A DNA stretch of 64,000 nt. Source: Escherichia phage vB_EcoM-LTH01. A program made the translations under genes and the position numbers. The stretch lies in sequence record PP430345; one strand, written 5' to 3'. Shown piece after piece: positions 2,174 through 32,164 of the stretch (position 1 is the first letter of the stretch; each line of letters opens with the position of its first letter). The notes under the pieces were generated by a model that was given only the letters and a program-made list of their open reading frames with translations, had not been told where the DNA came from and searched no databases.

Positions 2174-2794
2174 TTATTCTCCTTTAACCAGTTTAGTAAG
2201 CTGTGCAATGAATTGATCCAGATTGTCCTCTGTGACTTCCGCATCCTTAACTCTGACTGTGCGCTTAATGTTCACTTCAAAAACATCCGTATCTACAACT
2301 TCCTGTTCTTTTTCTACAGGTGCAGGAGTGTAATTATCAAACTTAGCCAATGCTTTCTTTAAGCTATCTTCCTGCAAGGTGAAGTATTTTTCCAAATTAC
2401 TTTGCTTAAGCATAACATAATCGTCAGGATTATCGGAGTTATACAGTCGCCACATATTTGGATGACTTGTTTTGATCTTGTAGTCACCCCATTTATCCCC
2501 CAGCAGATACTGATCATCAATAGCCACTTCACCCCTTGGGATCGCTAGGTTAACGATGTATTCTGCCGACTCCGCTGACCATTGAGGGAAGAATGTGAAA
2601 TACTCTTCGATATCTCTGGATGTTAAGAACTGACCCTCAATACGTGGACCCACCGGACGTAAGTAAGAATCGTTATTCTCAGAAGGTCGAACAATGAATC
2701 GATCACCATGATTTTCAATCATACGTCGGTTAGATGGGTCCATTGAAATAAAATAACTTTTCTTACTTTCTTTCAGTTTTGCATATATAGCCAT
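2174..2794 (-). CDS. hypothetical protein (206 aa)
   Basis: ORF in operon context. Confidence 0.6.
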   Translation of the reverse strand: MAIYAKLKESKKSYFISMDPSNRRMIENHGDRFIVRPSENNDSYLRPVGPRIEGQFLTSRDIEEYFTFFPQWSAESAEYIVNLAIPRGEVAIDDQYLLGDKWGDYKIKTSHPNMWRLYNSDNPDDYVMLKQSNLEKYFTLQEDSLKKALAKFDNYTPAPVEKEQEVVDTDVFEVNIKRTVRVKDAEVTEDNLDQFIAQLTKLVKGE

Positions 2795-2864
2795 TTCTTT
2801 CTCCTCTTTGTTTTGATAACTGAAGTTTAGCTCAAGGGGTGACTCTCGTCAACCCCTTTTGTGA

Positions 2865-3386
2865 TTAATTTGGCTTTATAACTTTACGAACAACATCCAA
2901 AATCTCACTTTGATGCGTATATTCAGTATTGATTTTTGTGGGCCAGTCCAGATACCAAGGTTCTTCTAACTCCCTCAGGGGTTGAAGCGCAAAAGGAACC
3001 CCATGAAGGATGTGATCACGGTCAGGGGCAAACGTCTCCGTATAATCCCAAGCCCATCTCGCCTGCCCTTTAGTTATTGAATCGGCCCGGCGTTGCTTCA
3101 AGATCATCTTCTTAATGAAAACAGGATCTTCATCCTTATCTTCAATAAATTTAGGCGCTCGACCCATACATCCGATAAGGTAGTCATTATCTACACGTTG
3201 GATGAAGGACTCTACACTACCTCCCATTGCATTCCATTGGCCTACCCAAGACTTGCCACTTGAGGTGACTATAAGCTTACCTCTGCCATTCTCGTAGTTC
3301 TCAATGATAACCTCGATAGGGTCGAGCCTTTCTTCCTGGAGTTCTTCTATTCGAACCTTTTTAACTAAGCTTTCTGTGACTTTCAT
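2865..3386 (-). CDS. hypothetical protein (173 aa)
   Basis: ORF in operon context. Confidence 0.6.
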   Translation of the reverse strand: MKVTESLVKKVRIEELQEERLDPIEVIIENYENGRGKLIVTSSGKSWVGQWNAMGGSVESFIQRVDNDYLIGCMGRAPKFIEDKDEDPVFIKKMILKQRRADSITKGQARWAWDYTETFAPDRDHILHGVPFALQPLRELEEPWYLDWPTKINTEYTHQSEILDVVRKVIKPN

Positions 3387-3527
3387 TTCTTTTCCTTACG
3401 CTCTGGAAACTTCCACGCGAAGTACGCCATGTTTCGATTATGCTTCACACCATAATACACTTCATGACCGTATCCGAAAAGATATCCAGCAACAACTAGC
3501 GCGTATTCCCAAAACTTCCACTTGATT

Positions 3528-3935
3528 TTACGGATTGCATTTCCCATGTTTTCTCCCTATTAAGACTTTGTGACGTTTCTGAACGGCTCGCTCTAAAGGA
3601 TTAACCCATTTGGTATTAGTCTTCTTAAGCTTACGTGTAATGTTCCAGACAATGATCTTCTTACCAATATCAGTTCCACTCACCTTTAAAAGAACGGCTT
3701 GTTTGATAGCGCCCCCTCTTACCACAATGTTTGCAATAAGGAAAGACAACAAAGCTAAAGGACCCATCAGGATCACAACAATAAACATGAAGTAGTCCAT
3801 CCCACTTACTTTGCCAGTACCTGCCAAAAGGTCAATGTAAAACCAGATCACAAAAGGAATACACAGTAGATAGATACCGATAAATACCCAATCAACCACT
3901 GTCAGTGCAAACACCATACTCAAAAAAGCATCCAT
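3528..3935 (-). CDS. small membrane protein (135 aa, about three hydrophobic helices)
   Basis: ORF with hydrophobic segments (VFALTVVDWVFIGIYLLCIPFVIWF, FMFIVVILMGPLALLSFLIANIVV). Confidence 0.55.
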   Translation of the reverse strand: MDAFLSMVFALTVVDWVFIGIYLLCIPFVIWFYIDLLAGTGKVSGMDYFMFIVVILMGPLALLSFLIANIVVRGGAIKQAVLLKVSGTDIGKKIIVWNITRKLKKTNTKWVNPLERAVQKRHKVLIGRKHGKCNP

Positions 3936-4298: not shown

Positions 4299-4534
4299 TA
4301 CGACCTCCTCTTAATAAATTCCAAAACTATTGAGTAAAACTTTACCCACTGATCCAACAATCATGAAGATCAATCCCAATGTTAGACAGTATATGTAAAA
4401 CTTATCCAATTGACTTTCCTTCTCTTGTTAACTCTACATCTGTTTCATTGTGGTGTCAACACAATTTTGTGGTGACTTAAAAAATTAAGTACCGAACGAA
4501 TGTGAGTGTGGTTAATTTTTTAATAGATATATAA

Positions 4535-4580
4535 ACCCCGTCGAAGCAACCGAGCAGGTTGAGGGGTTTATCATCTAATA
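4535..4580 (-). terminator. possible stem-loop terminator downstream of the 4619-4990 gene
   Basis: AAACCCC ... GGGGTTT inverted repeat with a long loop and a T/A-rich flank; weak. Confidence 0.3.
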
Positions 4581-4618
4581 TAGTATTGTATGCCTAAATG
4601 GGCATAAAGGAAATGTTG

Positions 4619-4990
4619 TTACTTAGACCAACGTTTCAACGTATTCCTTACCATCGTGTGCATACTTTCCTCATCATGACCTGCTGACCACATTGCCGTA
4701 AGTAACGAGAGCAACCTTACAATATCTGGCTCCTCATCTAACAGACTACCAACCGTAGCGGACAGGAAATCAATATCTTCATCAGCAATACGATCAGGAT
4801 ACAGGAAAGTGTCTTCCTTTACAAGATCTATCGGCTTTCCTGATCCAATCTTATGGCGAGATAAAGTAAATCCTTTCCCGTTAAAGGTGGAGGCCCACCA
4901 TTTTACAGCCTCCGCACTTTCATTAATCATGTTGATAGTCATAACCACACCACGCCTACCAACTGATAACTTGTAAGTATACTCGCTCAA
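4619..4990 (-). CDS. hypothetical protein (123 aa)
   Basis: ORF in operon context. Confidence 0.6.
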   Translation of the reverse strand: MSEYTYKLSVGRRGVVMTINMINESAEAVKWWASTFNGKGFTLSRHKIGSGKPIDLVKEDTFLYPDRIADEDIDFLSATVGSLLDEEPDIVRLLSLLTAMWSAGHDEESMHTMVRNTLKRWSK

Positions 4991-5001
4991 AGATCCTCCC
5001 C

Positions 5002-25989: not shown

Positions 25990-26461
25990 AGATTTAAGTA
26001 AGCGTAAATACCCTGCGGTATTTAATGATAACGGTAAATGGTTTACTGGTTGGGATAAGGATGCTCTTTCTACCGAAGAGATCGAAAAGCTGAAATTAAA
26101 GCATCCACATTATTCCGAAGAATACTTCGAAAATCGGAAAAAGATGAAGACGAATGAACATGAACATCGCCATTTACGTTTACAGTTTCGTCAATTCACC
26201 CAAGGACGTAGCTCTGTTGTTGCAGTTATGGAGGACGAAGATGGTTTCTGTTACAACATGACGTTGGCAGATTTTGAGCATATTTTGTTAGTGACCCAAC
26301 GGTCAGACAATAATCTTGCTGATCTGATCCTTGTTCATGAAGAAACTTTCATCAACATGGATATTGGTACTTGGTATGTTGGAACTTTCAATCAGTGTAA
26401 GCGGGGGCAGAATTACTTCATCACCCCTTCCGAGTATGAACAAACAGAAGAGGATTGGTAA
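25973..26461 (+). CDS. hypothetical protein (162 aa)
   Basis: ORF. Confidence 0.6.
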   Translation: MIQMFKDLSKRKYPAVFNDNGKWFTGWDKDALSTEEIEKLKLKHPHYSEEYFENRKKMKTNEHEHRHLRLQFRQFTQGRSSVVAVMEDEDGFCYNMTLADFEHILLVTQRSDNNLADLILVHEETFINMDIGTWYVGTFNQCKRGQNYFITPSEYEQTEEDW

Positions 26462-26466
26462 TACCT

Positions 26467-26700
26467 ATGAAAGATAATTCTGTATACTCGGAGATCAGCA
26501 GTGTTCGAATAATCAATGCTGAAAATAAAGATATCAATAACAAAGACCTACAAGCTTACGGTGTAAAAGTTGGTGACATTTACGAAGCGAGGGTGTACTA
26601 TCTATCTAGGAATGGCAAACCTACAACTGCCCGATTGAACATGGGCTACGGTGAGACTATTGTAGCTTTTAGTAGTGAATTTGAGGTAATAGAAGACTGA
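26467..26700 (+). CDS. hypothetical protein (77 aa)
   Basis: ORF; start at the ATG after the upstream stop. Confidence 0.5.
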   Translation: MKDNSVYSEISSVRIINAENKDINNKDLQAYGVKVGDIYEARVYYLSRNGKPTTARLNMGYGETIVAFSSEFEVIED

Positions 26701-26792
26701 TGCCTACTTTACTGGGTTTAATCTTCTTAGGTGGGGTATTCGCTATTTTAGTTATGCTTTACTTTATTGATGAAGGATACCTGCACTTTTGA
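26700..26792 (+). CDS. possible 30-aa hydrophobic peptide
   Basis: TGATG-coupled ATG; MPTLLGLIFLGGVFAILVMLYFIDEGYLHF; followed by a hairpin; not in the supplied track. Confidence 0.3.
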   Translation: MPTLLGLIFLGGVFAILVMLYFIDEGYLHF

Positions 26793-26865
26793 TAACCTAG
26801 CCGAAGGGTAATACCTCCGGCTGGGCTTTGTTTTAGTCTAGTTGGAGTTTAAAGAAGGAGAAAAA

Positions 26866-29202
26866 ATGAAAGGCTTATTTATTGGAGATGCGGAAGCTAA
26901 CGGCCTGTTGACAGAGGTTGATCTCATTCACTGCGTCCTGTTTAAAGAGTATAAAAAAGATAACTGGAACATCTTTCTTGATCCCCAACGGGAAGGTTAC
27001 GATCAAGCTGTTAAATTTATCCAATCTAAAGGTAAAAACTTTAAGATTCGCACTATTGAAGAATTAAACGAATGGTTTGTCACAGAGCCTAAGGCAATTG
27101 CTATCCACAACATCTTCGGCTATGACCTCCAGTTGTTTAAGAAGATGCTAGGAACAACTTACGATATGTTTGCAGACCCTGGTTGCATGGGGACGATCAA
27201 TGGTAAACAAGTAACCATCTTCGATACACTTTCAATGTCCCGTACATTGTATCCAGATCGCCCTCTGCCTCGCGGTTGTCCTGAGATGGTAAAGAACCCC
27301 GTCACAGGTAAAATGAAGCCTGTAGGGCCACACGGGCTTGAAGCTTGGGGTATGCGAGTAGCCAACCAGAAAGTGGCGATTGAAGATTGGCGTGGCCTTC
27401 CACTTTGGAAGTATTGCGATCGTATTATTGAAGACGTAATTATCAACGAAATGGTGTGGGATGCTCTGATGAAAGAGATCTCTTGTGAATCTATGCCGGA
27501 TGATAAACGCTTCATGTATAAGGATGAAACAGACAAAGATCAGAAGAAGTATAAAATGATCAACTGGAAGAATGCCCTGCGTCGAGGTATGTTGACTGAC
27601 TACCTGATGATTGAGCAAGAAATTCAAGGTGTTTCATTTGATGAAGAAAAAGCACTCAAGCTTCGTGATCGTATCGATAAGATGATGACTGACATTGAGT
27701 TAGAGGTTGAACCTAAGTTGCCGAAGAAAGAGATGTCGAAATCAGCACAACCGACATTCCCATCCAAACCTTTCAAGGGCGATGGCTCTCTTTCCGGTAC
27801 AGGTTGGAAATGGTTAGAGAAGTTAGGTTATAATATCAATTGGGAAGCCTTGGAATTTAAAGGTGCACCAAGTAAGCCGTTTAAGGCTGACGGATCTCTT
27901 ACTGCCGCCGCGATCAAGTATTGTGTTGAACACGGTGTAGAAGATGAATCCAAAATGGGTGATTTTATCCGTGCACAAAACGTTAAGCAGCAAGGGCTTG
28001 TTCCTTTGCCGCCGGAAGATATGGCTCGTGCTTTGATGGATATCAAAGAACAAAAGATGCCGGACATTATGATCCCGATGCGTATTGGTAACCAGGACGA
28101 CGTTAAGAAGTTCCTGATCCGTGATGCAGGGTGGATTCCAACAATTTGGCGTACAAAGGATGCAACTAAAGATCAGTTCAAGAAACAACGTCCAGATAGT
28201 GAGGTTGACCTGATTGTTCGTCAATATATTGAAGATTTGGATCAGACAGAGTATCGGGATTTGATTCTGAAAAGCTTATCGATCACCCCTAAACAGTGGT
28301 CCGATAAAGAAAAGATGTTCAAGTTCTTCCGTAAGAAAGCCCGTGCATTACCAACATCTCCACAACTTAAGGATCAGCAGGGTCTTTGCCCTAACCTTGA
28401 GCGAGTAGATGGTGAAATGGCTAAACAGATTGTTAAATGGCTGTCTTTACGTAACCGACGATCTGTTCTTGACCCACTGAAAGAAGAGAAGGTTGATACC
28501 GGATGGCTTAACCATCCACGTCTACGAGTTGACGGTAAACTTCCGGCCCGTTATAGTGGAATAACTAACACAGGTCGTCGTAAGCATACGATCGTAGCAA
28601 ACGTACCTAAGCCGGATGAGAAAGTTCTTCTCGGTAAAGAGATGCGTGAACTGTTTAGAGCCTCCGAGGGTAAATATCAGGTAGGTATCGACGGTTCAAA
28701 CTTGGAAGGTATGATCGCGGCATGGGGCGCGTATGATTTCGATGGTGGCGCTTATCTTCGTATCATGGAATCTGGAGATGCTCACTCCCGAAACGCAGAA
28801 GCGTATACCAAAGCGGCAGGGAAGAAGGTTTCTCGTGGTGAAGGTAAAGGTGTGACATACGGAATTATGTACGGGGCACAGGCAGCGAAGATTGCATCAA
28901 TGCTGGGGATCACTCTTGAGAAGGCCCAGGCAGTAATCGACGCATTCTGGGATAGCAACATCGGCTTGAAAGGTCGTAAAGAAGCATTAGAGAAGTTTTG
29001 GGAAGCTAACGGTAAGCGATTCATCTACGGTCTTGATGGACGTAAGATCTACACTCGTTCCAAACACTCATTGCTTAATGCTTATCAGCAGAATGGTGGT
29101 GCTGCACTGTTTGACTTGGTGGGTATCCTCCTGCACTGGCAGTTGGTCAAGAAAGGTTGGTATGATGAAGGCGTTAGACGTATTATCTATTACCATAAGT
29201 AA
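26866..29202 (+). CDS. family A DNA polymerase (T7 gp5 / Pol I-like), 5' exon; the ORF runs into the intron and stops at 29202, true splice junction unresolved
   Basis: AAGGAG then ATG at 26866; exonuclease-like FIGDAEANGL; motif B RGEGKGVTYGIMYGAQ; ...GLDGRK...LLNAYQQ..RRIIYYH aligns with the pre-motif-C region of Pol I/T7 polymerase (recalled from memory). Confidence 0.75.
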   Translation: MKGLFIGDAEANGLLTEVDLIHCVLFKEYKKDNWNIFLDPQREGYDQAVKFIQSKGKNFKIRTIEELNEWFVTEPKAIAIHNIFGYDLQLFKKMLGTTYDMFADPGCMGTINGKQVTIFDTLSMSRTLYPDRPLPRGCPEMVKNPVTGKMKPVGPHGLEAWGMRVANQKVAIEDWRGLPLWKYCDRIIEDVIINEMVWDALMKEISCESMPDDKRFMYKDETDKDQKKYKMINWKNALRRGMLTDYLMIEQEIQGVSFDEEKALKLRDRIDKMMTDIELEVEPKLPKKEMSKSAQPTFPSKPFKGDGSLSGTGWKWLEKLGYNINWEALEFKGAPSKPFKADGSLTAAAIKYCVEHGVEDESKMGDFIRAQNVKQQGLVPLPPEDMARALMDIKEQKMPDIMIPMRIGNQDDVKKFLIRDAGWIPTIWRTKDATKDQFKKQRPDSEVDLIVRQYIEDLDQTEYRDLILKSLSITPKQWSDKEKMFKFFRKKARALPTSPQLKDQQGLCPNLERVDGEMAKQIVKWLSLRNRRSVLDPLKEEKVDTGWLNHPRLRVDGKLPARYSGITNTGRRKHTIVANVPKPDEKVLLGKEMRELFRASEGKYQVGIDGSNLEGMIAAWGAYDFDGGAYLRIMESGDAHSRNAEAYTKAAGKKVSRGEGKGVTYGIMYGAQAAKIASMLGITLEKAQAVIDAFWDSNIGLKGRKEALEKFWEANGKRFIYGLDGRKIYTRSKHSLLNAYQQNGGAALFDLVGILLHWQLVKKGWYDEGVRRIIYYHK

Positions 29203-29917
29203 CATTGTGGCTTTGTGAGGTAACTCACATCGAAAACTCCTTTAATTGCTGGAAGACTAAGGTTGATATTAATTCAAGTGTGAGTTAGTATGAGACTATG
29301 TTAATCAGCAGCGAAGAGGATCATGTGGAATATAAAGATTATTTCGGTTACAAGGTTTATGAAGACGGGACCATTATAGGTCGTCGAGGGAAACCAATGG
29401 CGGCAGTTGATAATGGACGTGGGTATCTTATTGTAAGTCTGTATCTCAACAAAAGGACGACTACAAAGGCTGTTCACGTTTTGGTGGCAGAGTGTTTTGT
29501 ACCAAACCCTGAAGGTTTGCCGGAGGTTGATCATAAGTGGCCTGACAAAAGGAATAACCACTATTCAAACCTCCAATGGACAACTCGTGGTGGAAATATC
29601 AAGAAAACCTTTGCTGATAAATGTCGTTCAGCAACAGGGGTTGATAACGCCAGAAGTATAGTTACCGAAGAAGAGGTTAGAGAGATTTGCAACTTCCTGG
29701 GGCAAGGTTATGGAAGTGCACAGATTCGGGATATGGGTTATCCTTACAACGTGGTAAGGTCCATAAAAATCCGTAAAAACTGGACACACATCTCTTGTGA
29801 CTACACATGGTCCTAACGTTCAGAGACTAGCCGAGAGGCGTAGGCGAGCAAGTGCCGTCGAAATGGGGAGCATCCTGAAAAGGATGGTGATATAGTCCGA
29901 TCCATACGTGAAAACGT
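29203..29917 (+). mobile_element. group I self-splicing intron carrying an HNH homing-endonuclease ORF, inserted in the polymerase gene at or near motif C (boundaries approximate; the 3' end may lie as far as about 30116)
   Basis: After the HNH stop: GTTCAGAGACTA (J6/7-P7) ... GATATAGTCC (P7 3' strand) and a P9-like hairpin CCATACGTG-AAAA-CGTATGG, matching the conserved group I core as I recall it from the Tetrahymena and T4 td introns. Confidence 0.65.
29298..29816 (+). CDS. HNH homing endonuclease (intron-encoded)
   Basis: YKDYFGYKVYEDGTIIGRRGKP...GYLIVSLY...AVHVLVAECFVPNP..LPEVDHKWPDKRNNHYSNLQWTT is the typical free-standing HNH homing-endonuclease pattern; different frame from both polymerase segments. 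Confidence 0.75.
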   Translation: MLISSEEDHVEYKDYFGYKVYEDGTIIGRRGKPMAAVDNGRGYLIVSLYLNKRTTTKAVHVLVAECFVPNPEGLPEVDHKWPDKRNNHYSNLQWTTRGGNIKKTFADKCRSATGVDNARSIVTEEEVREICNFLGQGYGSAQIRDMGYPYNVVRSIKIRKNWTHISCDYTWS

Positions 29918-30268
29918 ATGGCAACATGTAATGATGTGGGCGAGAGTAACGACCTCGTTAAACTTTTGGATGAATACCAGCTTGAAGTGCCGCACAAGTT
30001 CAAAAAGACTTGGACCTTTGACAACGAAGCTGACGCGAAGAAATTTGTAGAAGCTTGCTTGGCTAAGAAAATGATCTTGGATGGTCATTGTGTGAAAGAA
30101 GGGAAGTTTAAGTGTGATCCTGATGAGAATGGAATCTACACGATCATGTATTGTCCAGTTGGAGAGATGGTTGTTCGTTGCGTAGAGCAAGCAGCACGAA
30201 TGATGAAATCTCCTGTACACATAACAGGTGAATACCTCACAGGGATGAACTGGGGGGCGTGCCACTGA
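29918..30268 (+). CDS. family A DNA polymerase, 3' segment (C-terminal palm region); real exon start unresolved (between about 29930 and 30117)
   Basis: C-terminus ...CDPDENGIYTIMYCPVGEMVVRCVEQAARMMKSPVHITGEYLTGMNWGACH aligns with the (H)DE...NW..AH C-terminus of Pol I and T7 gp5, including the terminal His. Confidence 0.6.
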   Translation: MATCNDVGESNDLVKLLDEYQLEVPHKFKKTWTFDNEADAKKFVEACLAKKMILDGHCVKEGKFKCDPDENGIYTIMYCPVGEMVVRCVEQAARMMKSPVHITGEYLTGMNWGACH

Positions 30269-30274
30269 TAATTT

Positions 30275-30304
30275 AAACCACCCTTCGGGGTGGTTTTCTT
30301 TTAT
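30275..30304 (+). terminator. rho-independent terminator after the DNA polymerase
   Basis: AAACCACCC-TTCG-GGGTGGTTT then TTCTTTT. Confidence 0.7.
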
Positions 30305-30317
30305 GTGCAAAAAGTTA

Positions 30318-30347
30318 TTGACAGGACATACCCACATCAACTAAGAT
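30318..30347 (+). promoter_or_regulatory. sigma70-like promoter TTGACA-N18-TAAGAT
   Basis: Hexamers directly downstream of the terminator, upstream of the paralog array. Confidence 0.5.
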
Positions 30348-30376
30348 GTATCCATCAACTGAAGAGGAGAACAAAG

Positions 30377-30748
30377 ATGGAAATCGGAAAGACTTATATT
30401 CTTAATAAAGACTTAGAAAAAGCTTTTATTAGTATGGACCCTAGCTACAATCAAGAATTGGCTGATCTTCTTTATAAACACGGTCCTAAATTTGTTGTCA
30501 ACACCACCCACGTTTATGATAATGTTACATACGTTAACAATGTCATATTTGAAGATGGTACTTTAGGTAGTGACAGTCTTCACGGCTGCGAAGGTAACAA
30601 GGGTGTATACTTTGAACTTGCAGAGAGTGAATTTCCCTTCTTTAAGGAAGTCGGGGAAGATGAAGACCCTATTATCCAGGTTGCCGTTTCTCGTGGTAAT
30701 GCACAAGAAACCGTAGACCTGATTAAAGCTACCTTTAACCTAGTATAA
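30377..30748 (+). CDS. small protein, paralog family member 1 (MEIGKTYILN...QETVDLIKATFNL)
   Basis: GAGGAG ribosome-binding site; shares N- and C-terminal motifs with the next two genes. Confidence 0.65.
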   Translation: MEIGKTYILNKDLEKAFISMDPSYNQELADLLYKHGPKFVVNTTHVYDNVTYVNNVIFEDGTLGSDSLHGCEGNKGVYFELAESEFPFFKEVGEDEDPIIQVAVSRGNAQETVDLIKATFNLV

Positions 30749-30759
30749 GGAGGACAAAA

Positions 30760-31119
30760 ATGCAAGTCGGTAAAACTTATAAACTTAATCCAAAATTCGT
30801 GGAAGAATTTATTAAGGCTGACCCAAGTTACAATCACGAGATTGTTTCTTTTCTGGATGAGCACGGGCCGCGATTTATTGTTAACAACATGAGCATGATT
30901 GAAGGTGATGAGTATGTTAATAACATCACAACAGAAGATGGTGCTGTAGGGTGTGATTCATTCAGTGTGGGCTGCGGGGCAATGTACTTTGAACTTCGTG
31001 AATCTGAGTTCAAATACTTTGAAGAGGTCAGCGACCTTAAAATTATTCAGGTATCTGTGTCAGACCGCAACGCACAAGAAACTATTGACCTGATCAAATC
31101 CACATTTAACTTACCATAA
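30760..31119 (+). CDS. small protein, paralog family member 2 (MQVGKTYKLN...QETIDLIKSTFNL)
   Basis: AAGGAGG ribosome-binding site; paralog of the flanking genes. Confidence 0.65.
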   Translation: MQVGKTYKLNPKFVEEFIKADPSYNHEIVSFLDEHGPRFIVNNMSMIEGDEYVNNITTEDGAVGCDSFSVGCGAMYFELRESEFKYFEEVSDLKIIQVSVSDRNAQETIDLIKSTFNLP

Positions 31120-31129
31120 GGAGATTGTT

Positions 31130-31519
31130 ATGATGCAAGTAGGAAAAACTTATATTCTCAACCCTCTGTATAAAGATGATTTTACCCGCAAGTACCTCGC
31201 AAACGACAAGATTTCAGATTTGCTAGAGCGGCATGGTCCCAGTTTCGTTGTAGACGAGTTAAAAACCTACAATCTTGAGAATAAATTTGTAGCCCGTGTA
31301 ACTCTAGAGGATGGTACTGTATCTTCTAGCAATATTGAAGATGATTTATTTTTTGAGGTTTATCCTGATGAATTCGAATACTTCACCGAGGTAACTTTAG
31401 AACAGCCCCAACCTATTGCCGAAGATACAGTTTCAGGTGTAGCAAAAGTTCATTGTGTTGTGGATGAAAACAACGTCGATGAAATCATCAAACTTTTGCA
31501 AAAAACTTTTAAAAAGTAG
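31130..31519 (+). CDS. small protein, paralog family member 3 (MMQVGKTYILN...)
   Basis: AAGGAG ribosome-binding site; N-terminal motif shared, C-terminus more diverged. Confidence 0.65.
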   Translation: MMQVGKTYILNPLYKDDFTRKYLANDKISDLLERHGPSFVVDELKTYNLENKFVARVTLEDGTVSSSNIEDDLFFEVYPDEFEYFTEVTLEQPQPIAEDTVSGVAKVHCVVDENNVDEIIKLLQKTFKK

Positions 31520-31530
31520 TATACAAGCGG

Positions 31531-31566
31531 ATAGGACTATGTTATAGTAGTCCTATCAAAACAAAT
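31531..31566 (+). promoter_or_regulatory. perfect 10-bp inverted repeat GATAGGACTA-N8-TAGTCCTATC followed by CCTATCAAAACAAA; operator or stem-loop upstream of the 31579 gene
   Basis: Palindrome read in the sequence; the same CCTATCAAAACAAA 14-mer follows the promoter at 10741-10765. Confidence 0.45.
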
Positions 31567-31578
31567 GAGGAGAACAAA

Positions 31579-31905
31579 ATGAAAAGCAGCCCACAACTTC
31601 TGAATTTCTACCAAGAATATAAAAAATGGTTAGATATCGGTGCACCAAAAGATGGTGCTTTTTACCGAGGCGCTGGCCTTTGTTTTAATTTGTCCTCATT
31701 CCTGGGTAAAAATGATCCAGACATGAAAGTGCAATTCGAAATGAAGAATCAATTCTTTGATGCGGGTCTTAACACCGAAACACCTTTTGATTTTGATTTT
31801 GACGAATATGCCCATCATGGTTCAAAAGGTAAATCTTACCTCAACATTTATCGTCGTGGTTGGGTAGAAGATCGAATTCGCGACATGGAGAATACACATG
31901 AGTAA
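31579..31905 (+). CDS. hypothetical protein (108 aa)
   Basis: ORF with GAGGAG ribosome-binding site. Confidence 0.6.
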   Translation: MKSSPQLLNFYQEYKKWLDIGAPKDGAFYRGAGLCFNLSSFLGKNDPDMKVQFEMKNQFFDAGLNTETPFDFDFDEYAHHGSKGKSYLNIYRRGWVEDRIRDMENTHE

Positions 31906-32164
31906 TCTGGCAGTTACAGCGATTGTTAAATATGACTTGTTTCCTCGTTATCGGGTGATCAAAGGCCGACTGCTGCCAAATGGTAATGTTCAACTTATCG
32001 GATCAACGTCCTACATGAAGGCAGAGCACATTATTCGTATTCTTCCACTCGACCAGTTCGATGAAGAAGAAAAGAAAAAGGATAAACTTGTTTCCGATTA
32101 TCGTGAAAAAGAACTTAAATTAAGACTTGACTTGTTGGAACAAGCTGGTGTAGACTATATCTAA
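31898..32164 (+). CDS. hypothetical protein (88 aa)
   Basis: ORF. Confidence 0.55.
   Translation: MSNLAVTAIVKYDLFPRYRVIKGRLLPNGNVQLIGSTSYMKAEHIIRILPLDQFDEEEKKKDKLVSDYREKELKLRLDLLEQAGVDYI

Follow-up and report, generated by a model that had tools for sequence, protein, structure and literature searches.

The family A DNA polymerase gene of Escherichia phage vB_EcoM-LTH01 (sequence record PP430345) was analyzed in a stretch of 64,000 nucleotides (nt), hereafter the window, whose numbering is used throughout; the polymerase gene, its intron and the terminator-like hairpin after it lie on its plus strand. Positions 29197 to 29968 of this gene are very probably a mobile group I intron of the IA2 type carrying a gene for an I-HmuI-like HNH homing endonuclease. 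Judging from protein alignments, the insertion point lies between the His and the Asp-Glu of polymerase motif C, equivalent to residue 881 of Escherichia coli Pol I. The original prediction for this region, made from the nucleotide sequence alone, was of a family A polymerase gene split by an HNH-bearing group I intron. It was borne out by a match to the Rfam model RF00028, covariation among relatives, splice signals, exact restoration of the gene, alignment with T7 gp5, the likeness of the encoded protein to I-HmuI and the reported splicing of the corresponding intron of phage CB7. In BLAST searches of phage genomes the window shared 98.8% identity with Escherichia phage A73, which belongs to the rV5-like myophages (Vequintavirinae), and in the sister phages UPEC06 and A7_1 the polymerase gene is uninterrupted.

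The polymerase frame opens at 26842 or 26866, ATG 26866 being the annotated start in the near-identical phages A73 and UPEC06. The list of open reading frames (ORFs) confirmed that this frame ends ...GVRRIIYYHK at the stop codon 29200-29202, as had been read from the sequence. Exon 1 (26866-29196) comprises 777 codons and its last residues are ...RRIIYYH, the final His being that of motif C; the UAA stop thus belongs to the intron and lies in frame one codon past the junction. The predicted continuation of the polymerase in a third frame was also found, in an ORF at 29918-30268 that ends ...NWGACH. Exon 2 itself (29969-30268, 99 codons and the stop codon) opens with GAT GAA, which encodes the Asp-Glu of motif C, and it matches PHROG 8888 (DNA polymerase) with an E-value of 1.8e-48.

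Joining 26866-29196 to 29969-30268 gives 2631 nt, the length of the uninterrupted UPEC06 gene, from which the spliced gene differs by 54 nt and two amino acids. The joined frame reads ...IIYYH|DEYQLEV and encodes 876 residues, and the uninterrupted UPEC06 protein reads ...RRIIYYHDEYQLEVPHKF...CDPDENG...NWGACH. Comparison of the joined exons with T7 gp5 showed motif C to be restored: the two proteins align straight across the junction (YYHDEYQL against WVHDEIQV), with the HDE of T7 gp5 on 29194-29196 plus 29969-29974. The unspliced exon 1 ORF scored 42.8 bits with Pfam DNA_pol_A and covered profile positions 113-279 only, whereas the spliced protein scored 45.7 bits (cut-off 34.3) over positions 113-345. 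A score above the cut-off together with the HDE of motif C in the joined protein places the product among the family A polymerases. The predicted spliced junction is ...TATTACCAT|GATGAATACCAG, i.e. TACCAT|GATGAA, and the predicted junction-spanning peptide is IIYYHDEYQLEVPHK.

The intron boundaries were given by the comparison with intron-less DNA and by the splice signals. Alignment of the UPEC06 gene with the window takes out exactly 29197-29968 (772 nt), leaving AAGUAA as the first bases of the intron and G29968 as the last. The end of exon 1 was fixed by this alignment together with the U·G pair of helix P1: the 5' splice site follows U29196, whose wobble with G29207 is invariant in 10 of 10 homologues. 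P1 itself (29193-98/29205-10) pairs the exon bases CCAU and the intron bases AA with the internal guide UUGUGG. The terminal G29968 is conserved in all 11 intron-containing alleles. A P10 helix is possible between GAUG, with which exon 2 starts (29969-29972), and the complementary guide CAUU (29203-29206), with 4 of 4 standard pairs, and is so short that it is weak evidence when taken alone. The pairings of P1, P10 and P6a were each verified base by base. An intein was ruled out by the stop codon at 29200-29202 and by the different frame of the endonuclease ORF.

The covariance scan supported a group I intron. RF00028 matched 29187-29920 over the full length of the model (positions 1-253) with 42.9 bits, a significant match both in a 1.2-kb search (E = 2.5e-9) and over the 64-kb window (E = 1.3e-7). 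It was the sole Rfam match at E <= 0.01 in the window, where neither further group I introns (Rfam, E-value thresholds) nor tRNA genes were found. The core segments first recognized from the sequence alone, GTTCAGAGACTA (29818-29829) and GATATAGTCC (29889-29898), align to the P7 and the J8/7-P7' of RF00028, respectively, and the P9-like hairpin, capped by GAAA (29902-29921), to its P9.

Covariation was analyzed in introns inserted at the identical ...YH|DE... site in 10 phages (the one studied here, CB7, PBES02, SSE121, SophiaRose, rV5, PVP-SE1, Vibrio phages 424E50-1 and 10AMN, and Aeromonas phage 2L372D). The core was aligned after removal of the variable P5 and ORF loops, with the P3/P7 pseudoknot made explicit. 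The resulting structure has 62 pairs in 12 helices; 97.2% of the cells hold standard pairs and 30 of the 62 pairs show compensatory changes. When the 3' partners were slid by 1-3 columns, 33-41% of the cells paired and 2-7 pairs were compensatory, and none of 500 shuffles reached the observed values. Covariation or folding supported P1 to P9, P7.1/P7.2, P9.1 and P9.2, and the minimum-energy fold of the intron without its ORF loop recovered all helices except the pseudoknotted P7.

In the 5' half, P2 (29214-19/29224-29, UGUGAG-GUAA-CUCACA) is compensatory in 6 of 6 pairs and paired in 100% of cells. P3 (29237-42/29865-70), which forms the pseudoknot with P7, is likewise 100% paired, with compensatory changes in half of its six pairs. 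P4 (29247-52/29305-10), helix 4 of the covariation alignment, encloses P5 (29255-57/29300-02) and an 11-base-pair P5a extension (29266-76/29281-91). P6 (29311-13/29817-19) and P6a (29317-27/29804-14) were recovered in the fold of the ORF-deleted mini-intron; the 11 base pairs of P6a close the loop that holds the endonuclease ORF, and in PBES02 and SSE121 all 11 are kept, with compensatory changes.

In the 3' half, P7 (29823-29/29893-98) encloses P7.1, a GUA linker, P7.2, the 3' strand of P3 and P8. P7.1 (29830-32/29837-39, GCC-GAGA-GGC) is variable or absent in some relatives (78.6% of cells paired), and P7.2 (29843-46/29856-59, GGCG and CGUC around 9 nt) is compensatory in three of its four pairs. 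P7.1 and P7.2, linked by GUA, thus lie between P7 and P3' at 29830-29859, an arrangement that assigns an intron to subgroup IA2 (PMC3428280). Compensatory changes were also seen in P8 (29871-75/29882-86; 4 of 5 pairs), P9 (29902-09/29914-21, with its GAAA loop; 4 of 8), P9.1 (29924-27/29934-37; 2 of 4) and P9.2 (29940-44/29954-58; 4 of 5), and the region from P9 to P9.2 (29902-29958) folded with z = -2.5. P9.1 and P9.2 lie downstream of the end of the Rfam model, and since they covary, they place the 3' end at 29968 independently.

The endonuclease ORF predicted at 29298-29816 was confirmed. Read from ATG 29298 it has 172 codons in a frame other than that of the polymerase. Its product matched PHROG 59 (HNH endonuclease) at 1e-33 and I-HmuI (PDB 1U3E) at E = 3.5e-5, residues 13-118 being aligned to 7-111 of I-HmuI. 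Within this alignment the catalytic motif DH...N...N is shared (EVDHKWPDKRNNHYSNLQWTT against VVDHKDGNKDNNLSTNLRWVT), and with these two matches the ORF carries the HNH (His-Me finger) motif. By these similarities the protein is an I-HmuI-like endonuclease of the HNH family, encoded in the loop of P6a. Relatives of this ORF were found by tBLASTn in 750 phage records.

From the sequence context GTG 29325, which gives 163 residues, is more likely than ATG 29298 to be the endonuclease start. It is preceded by GAGGA at 29316-29320, and its position is where the PBES02 and SSE121 annotations place the start. The G of the AUG at 29298 pairs in P5, and the endonuclease stop codon UAA (29814-29816) overlaps the last pair of P6a. 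Because GAGGA and GUG 29325 both lie within the 5' strand of P6a, folding of the ribozyme should mask initiation of endonuclease translation.

A sigma-70-like motif, TTGATA-17-TAGTAT (9 of 12 positions), lies at 29263-29291, within the P5a extension and shortly before the endonuclease ORF. Motifs of this kind occur at the same place in six relatives, with better matches, for example, in CB7 (TTGACA-17-TATGAT) and Aeromonas phage 2L372D (TTGACA...TATAAT). Since promoter-like sites are not enriched in the region (11 found against 8.1±2.8 expected), an intron-internal promoter is a lead and not a finding.

On this evidence the element would work as follows. The polymerase gene would be transcribed as a single pre-mRNA, and translation of unspliced RNA would stop at UAA 29200-29202, yielding a polymerase without its catalytic carboxylates. 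The intron would fold into the core from P1 to P9.2, and free guanosine would attack after U29196, held by its pair with G29207 in P1. The terminal G29968 would then fill the G-binding site of P7, with P10 (29969-72 with 29203-06) aligning exon 2. Ligation of the exons would produce ...IIYYH-DEYQLEV... within the 876-residue polymerase. The I-HmuI-like HNH enzyme would be made from the P6a loop, with its probable ribosome-binding site and start codon hidden in the P6a stem. Its targets in mixed infections would be polymerase alleles without the intron: these it would nick, and through repair they would acquire the intron together with nearby exon markers (homing).

The sequence of exon 1 next to the insertion site is constrained. 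Its 3' end, UACCAU, which pairs in P1, is the same in 11 of 11 intron-containing alleles, whereas the corresponding sequence in the four intron-less alleles is UAUCAU or UACCAC, the differences being synonymous. The intron-less target type of UPEC06 or A7_1 is ...TACTATCAT|GATGAA.... Eight of the 54 differences from UPEC06 are synonymous changes clustered between positions -28 and -4 relative to the insertion site (within 29169-29196); the 246 nt that precede this cluster have no differences, and exon 2 has only two. Such a cluster may reflect co-conversion in the course of homing, or selection acting on P1 and on the target of the endonuclease (immunity).

Several of the results weigh against the interpretation as a mobile group I intron with an HNH endonuclease gene. 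The RF00028 score of 42.9 bits does not reach the curated gathering threshold of 50, and a default Rfam scan of the whole window, run at gathering thresholds, therefore returned nothing. The endonuclease ORF scored 23.9 bits with Pfam HNH_3, just under the cut-off of 24.8, gave no match in an NCBIfam search and has an ambiguous start, either ATG 29298 or GTG 29325. P5 and P5a are known from the minimum-energy fold only. Splicing is deduced from structural features, from relatives' DNA and from the CB7 orthologue, which has a different ORF and a different P5-P6 region.

The low Rfam score, together with the variability of the P4-P5 region among relatives, could indicate a decayed group I intron that splices inefficiently, needs a host or phage factor or remains mostly unspliced, acting as a brake on polymerase expression. 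We consider this very unlikely. The score below 50 is attributable to the 497-nt endonuclease-ORF insertion in P6: orthologues at the same site exceed 50 bits (rV5, 64.7; two Vibrio phages, 65.0 and 71.5; PVP-SE1, 54.4), the ORF-less ones reaching 64.7-71.5. In addition, all core helices pair in the window sequence, and the closest relatives, A73, W70 and A5-4, which are isolated phages propagated on E. coli K-12, carry the same intron. The interrupted gene gave the sole polymerase-family match within 26000-32000, and the enzyme is presumably essential for replication.

It is also highly improbable that the gene is permanently split, with an endonuclease gene inserted, no splicing and an enzyme assembled from two polypeptides. 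An arrangement of this sort is reportedly found in Aeromonas phage Aeh1, whose NrdA is split by mobE and made as two separate polypeptides. Such a reading would agree with the GenBank records of the closest relatives, which annotate two separate 'DNA-directed DNA polymerase' coding sequences (CDSs), and with ATG 29918, which opens a frame continuous with exon 2. The CB7 paper also reports one HNH insertion, in another gene, without splicing (PMC7344957). On the other hand, a non-splicing insertion would have no reason to conserve the complete group I core that surrounds the ORF, with its 30 covarying pairs. Pairing in P1 also constrains the end of exon 1. The 3' strand of P9 contains ATG 29918, which has no Shine-Dalgarno sequence upstream, and starting there would add 17 intron-encoded residues in a stretch that is open and in frame by chance. 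The break would moreover part the His from the Asp-Glu inside a single catalytic beta-hairpin, and the orthologous insertion in CB7 does splice (PMC7344957).

The placement of the 3' end in the original prediction, within a span given as 29190-30130, did not hold: it had taken the Asp-Glu pair at 30122-30127, in a frame that is open from 29918, for that of motif C, its distance of 46 codons from the terminal His being that found in Pol I, and hence proposed either an intron running about 190 nt past P9, to about 30121, or an insertion of about 60 residues before motif C, readings to which we give practically no credence since in UPEC06 all of 29969-30121 is coding sequence, about 100% identical, base 30121 is a T where a group I 3' end requires a G, the HDE of T7 gp5 aligns to 29194-29196 plus 29969-29974, and P10 fits position 29969. 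The true Asp-Glu is at 29969-29974, as in the YYH-DEYQLEV of intron-less UPEC06; the intron extends 47 nt beyond P9 to 29968, so the predicted span overshot by about 160 nt, and the extra residues, about 51, come after motif C.

The Asp-Glu at 30122-30127 belongs to ...CDPDENG..., inside this lineage-specific segment of about 51 residues. The segment (about 29990-30140) follows the DEYQLEV strand of motif C and precedes the conserved C-terminal region (CPVGEM...NWGACH). It has no counterpart in T7 gp5, in Pol I or in the 68-residue exon 2 of the Vibrio and Aeromonas homologues, and it differs in length and sequence between rV5-like phages. Its presence in the intron-less UPEC06 gene identifies it, at the level of sequence, as native to the polymerase.

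Downstream of the gene, a hairpin with a T-run resembling an intrinsic terminator (30275-30296) lies just 3' of the polymerase stop codon and is followed by a promoter-like site (30318-30347). Both precede three tandem paralogous small ORFs located directly downstream of the polymerase (30377-30748, 30760-31119 and 31130-31519). Each begins M-(E/Q)-(I/V)-GKTY-x-LN, and they have in common the internal motifs ...HGP-F-V..., ...EDG... and ...F(E/K)E(F/Y)F-EV....

The main value of these results is a corrected annotation, in which the junction 29196|29969 gives the true 876-residue enzyme with an intact motif C. The GenBank records of A73, W70, A5-4, PBES02 and rV5 list the polymerase as two unrelated CDSs. 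In A73_100, ADU18_0172 and rv5_gp220 exon 2 is begun at an ATG (or equivalent) within the intron, and the HNH protein of the type found here is labelled 'hypothetical protein' in A73. The 2013 rV5 paper gave a polymerase of 775 residues, which corresponds to exon 1 only, and mentioned introns only in the terminase gene. No publication giving the ribozyme structure and exact junctions for rV5-like phages was found in the searched literature. The element itself belongs to a common, previously described class of selfish elements in phages and opens no new question; it is a further homing-endonuclease intron directed at the codons that are most conserved in essential replication genes of phages.

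The closest published system is that of CB7, a phage of the same subfamily (Vequintavirinae). Two introns with HNH genes were described in its polymerase gene by Buttimer et al. 2020, who demonstrated splicing by reverse transcription PCR and Sanger sequencing (PMC7344957). These introns were named group I only for their HNH genes, and no structure or splice sites were given (PMC7344957). The CB7 intron with CB7_50 (positions 4311-4997 of the CB7 sequence examined) has the identical insertion site, ...IIYYH|DEYQLEV, and its core aligns with that of the intron described here; in phiTE, a close relative of CB7, the 3' core is 94.8% identical to ours. The CB7 intron differs in that its P5-P6 region is unrelated and in that it carries another, shorter HNH gene (127 residues), with its start in an enlarged P5 loop and TTGACA-N17-TATGAT upstream of it. 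CB7 also has a second, upstream intron at ...GVTYG|(I)MYG..., where the window has none.

This second group I site, in the motif B region (about 28863 in the window, ...GKGVTYG|IMYGAQ...), is filled in SSE121 (2756-3397 of the sequence examined, 63.8 bits with Rfam) and in CB7 (3256-3926, 47.0 bits). The polymerase gene of Vibrio phage 424E50-1 likewise holds two group I introns, both ORF-less, at 1337-1586 and 1684-1898 of the sequence examined (93.3 and 65.0 bits); they are about 100 nt apart and leave a mini-exon of roughly 100 nt.

Other introns at the motif C site share the ribozyme core and differ in cargo. That of rV5 (1393-1668 of the sequence examined) is 276 nt long and has no ORF, and two Vibrio phages have an ORF-less intron there as well. 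PBES02 and SSE121 carry a P6a HNH gene as in the window. Aeromonas phage 2L372D (intron 1143-1882 of the sequence examined) has an HNH gene of the CB7 type, starting in an enlarged P5 loop. PVP-SE1 (709-1627 of the sequence examined) lacks a P6a HNH gene and has a LAGLIDADG gene between P7 and P7.1. Together with the window intron these relatives form a handy comparative set for endonuclease swapping on a single ribozyme. It is conceivable, though we hold it only tentatively, that the site-881 intron is one widespread ribozyme chassis on which endonuclease cassettes have been exchanged independently. It might then be found in rV5-like coliphages and in myophages of Vibrio and Aeromonas, and perhaps also in PhiI and W31, which are T7-like, a proposal that we put forward with similar reserve. 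If this were true, the chassis would offer a natural series for the study of how introns and homing-endonuclease genes combine.

The likeness to PhiI and W31 (AY769989 and AY769990) extends to several features. As cited in PMC3428280, their introns have a family A polymerase as host gene, are inserted at Pol I site 881 (His881|Asp882), belong to IA2 with P7.1-GUA-P7.2 and hold an HNH ORF in P6a, all as in the window, and are reported to be self-splicing. The comparison is by description, and these phages are of a podophage family, unlike the large myophage studied here; a BLAST search with the 3' core of the window gave no T7-sized genome among the matches listed (60 of 125 records). The group I introns in the family A polymerase genes of SPO1, SP82 and Bastille encode nicking HNH endonucleases (I-HmuI, I-HmuII and I-BasI) and belong to phages of Gram-positive hosts. 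SPO1 encodes I-HmuI itself, to which (1U3E) our ORF is matched with a distant protein similarity. These introns lie at Pol I site 674, in the fingers, and not at 881 (PMC3428280). Since CB7 and PhiI/W31 share its insertion site, the intron of vB_EcoM-LTH01 is regarded as orthologous to a published intron and as closely analogous to a classic one.

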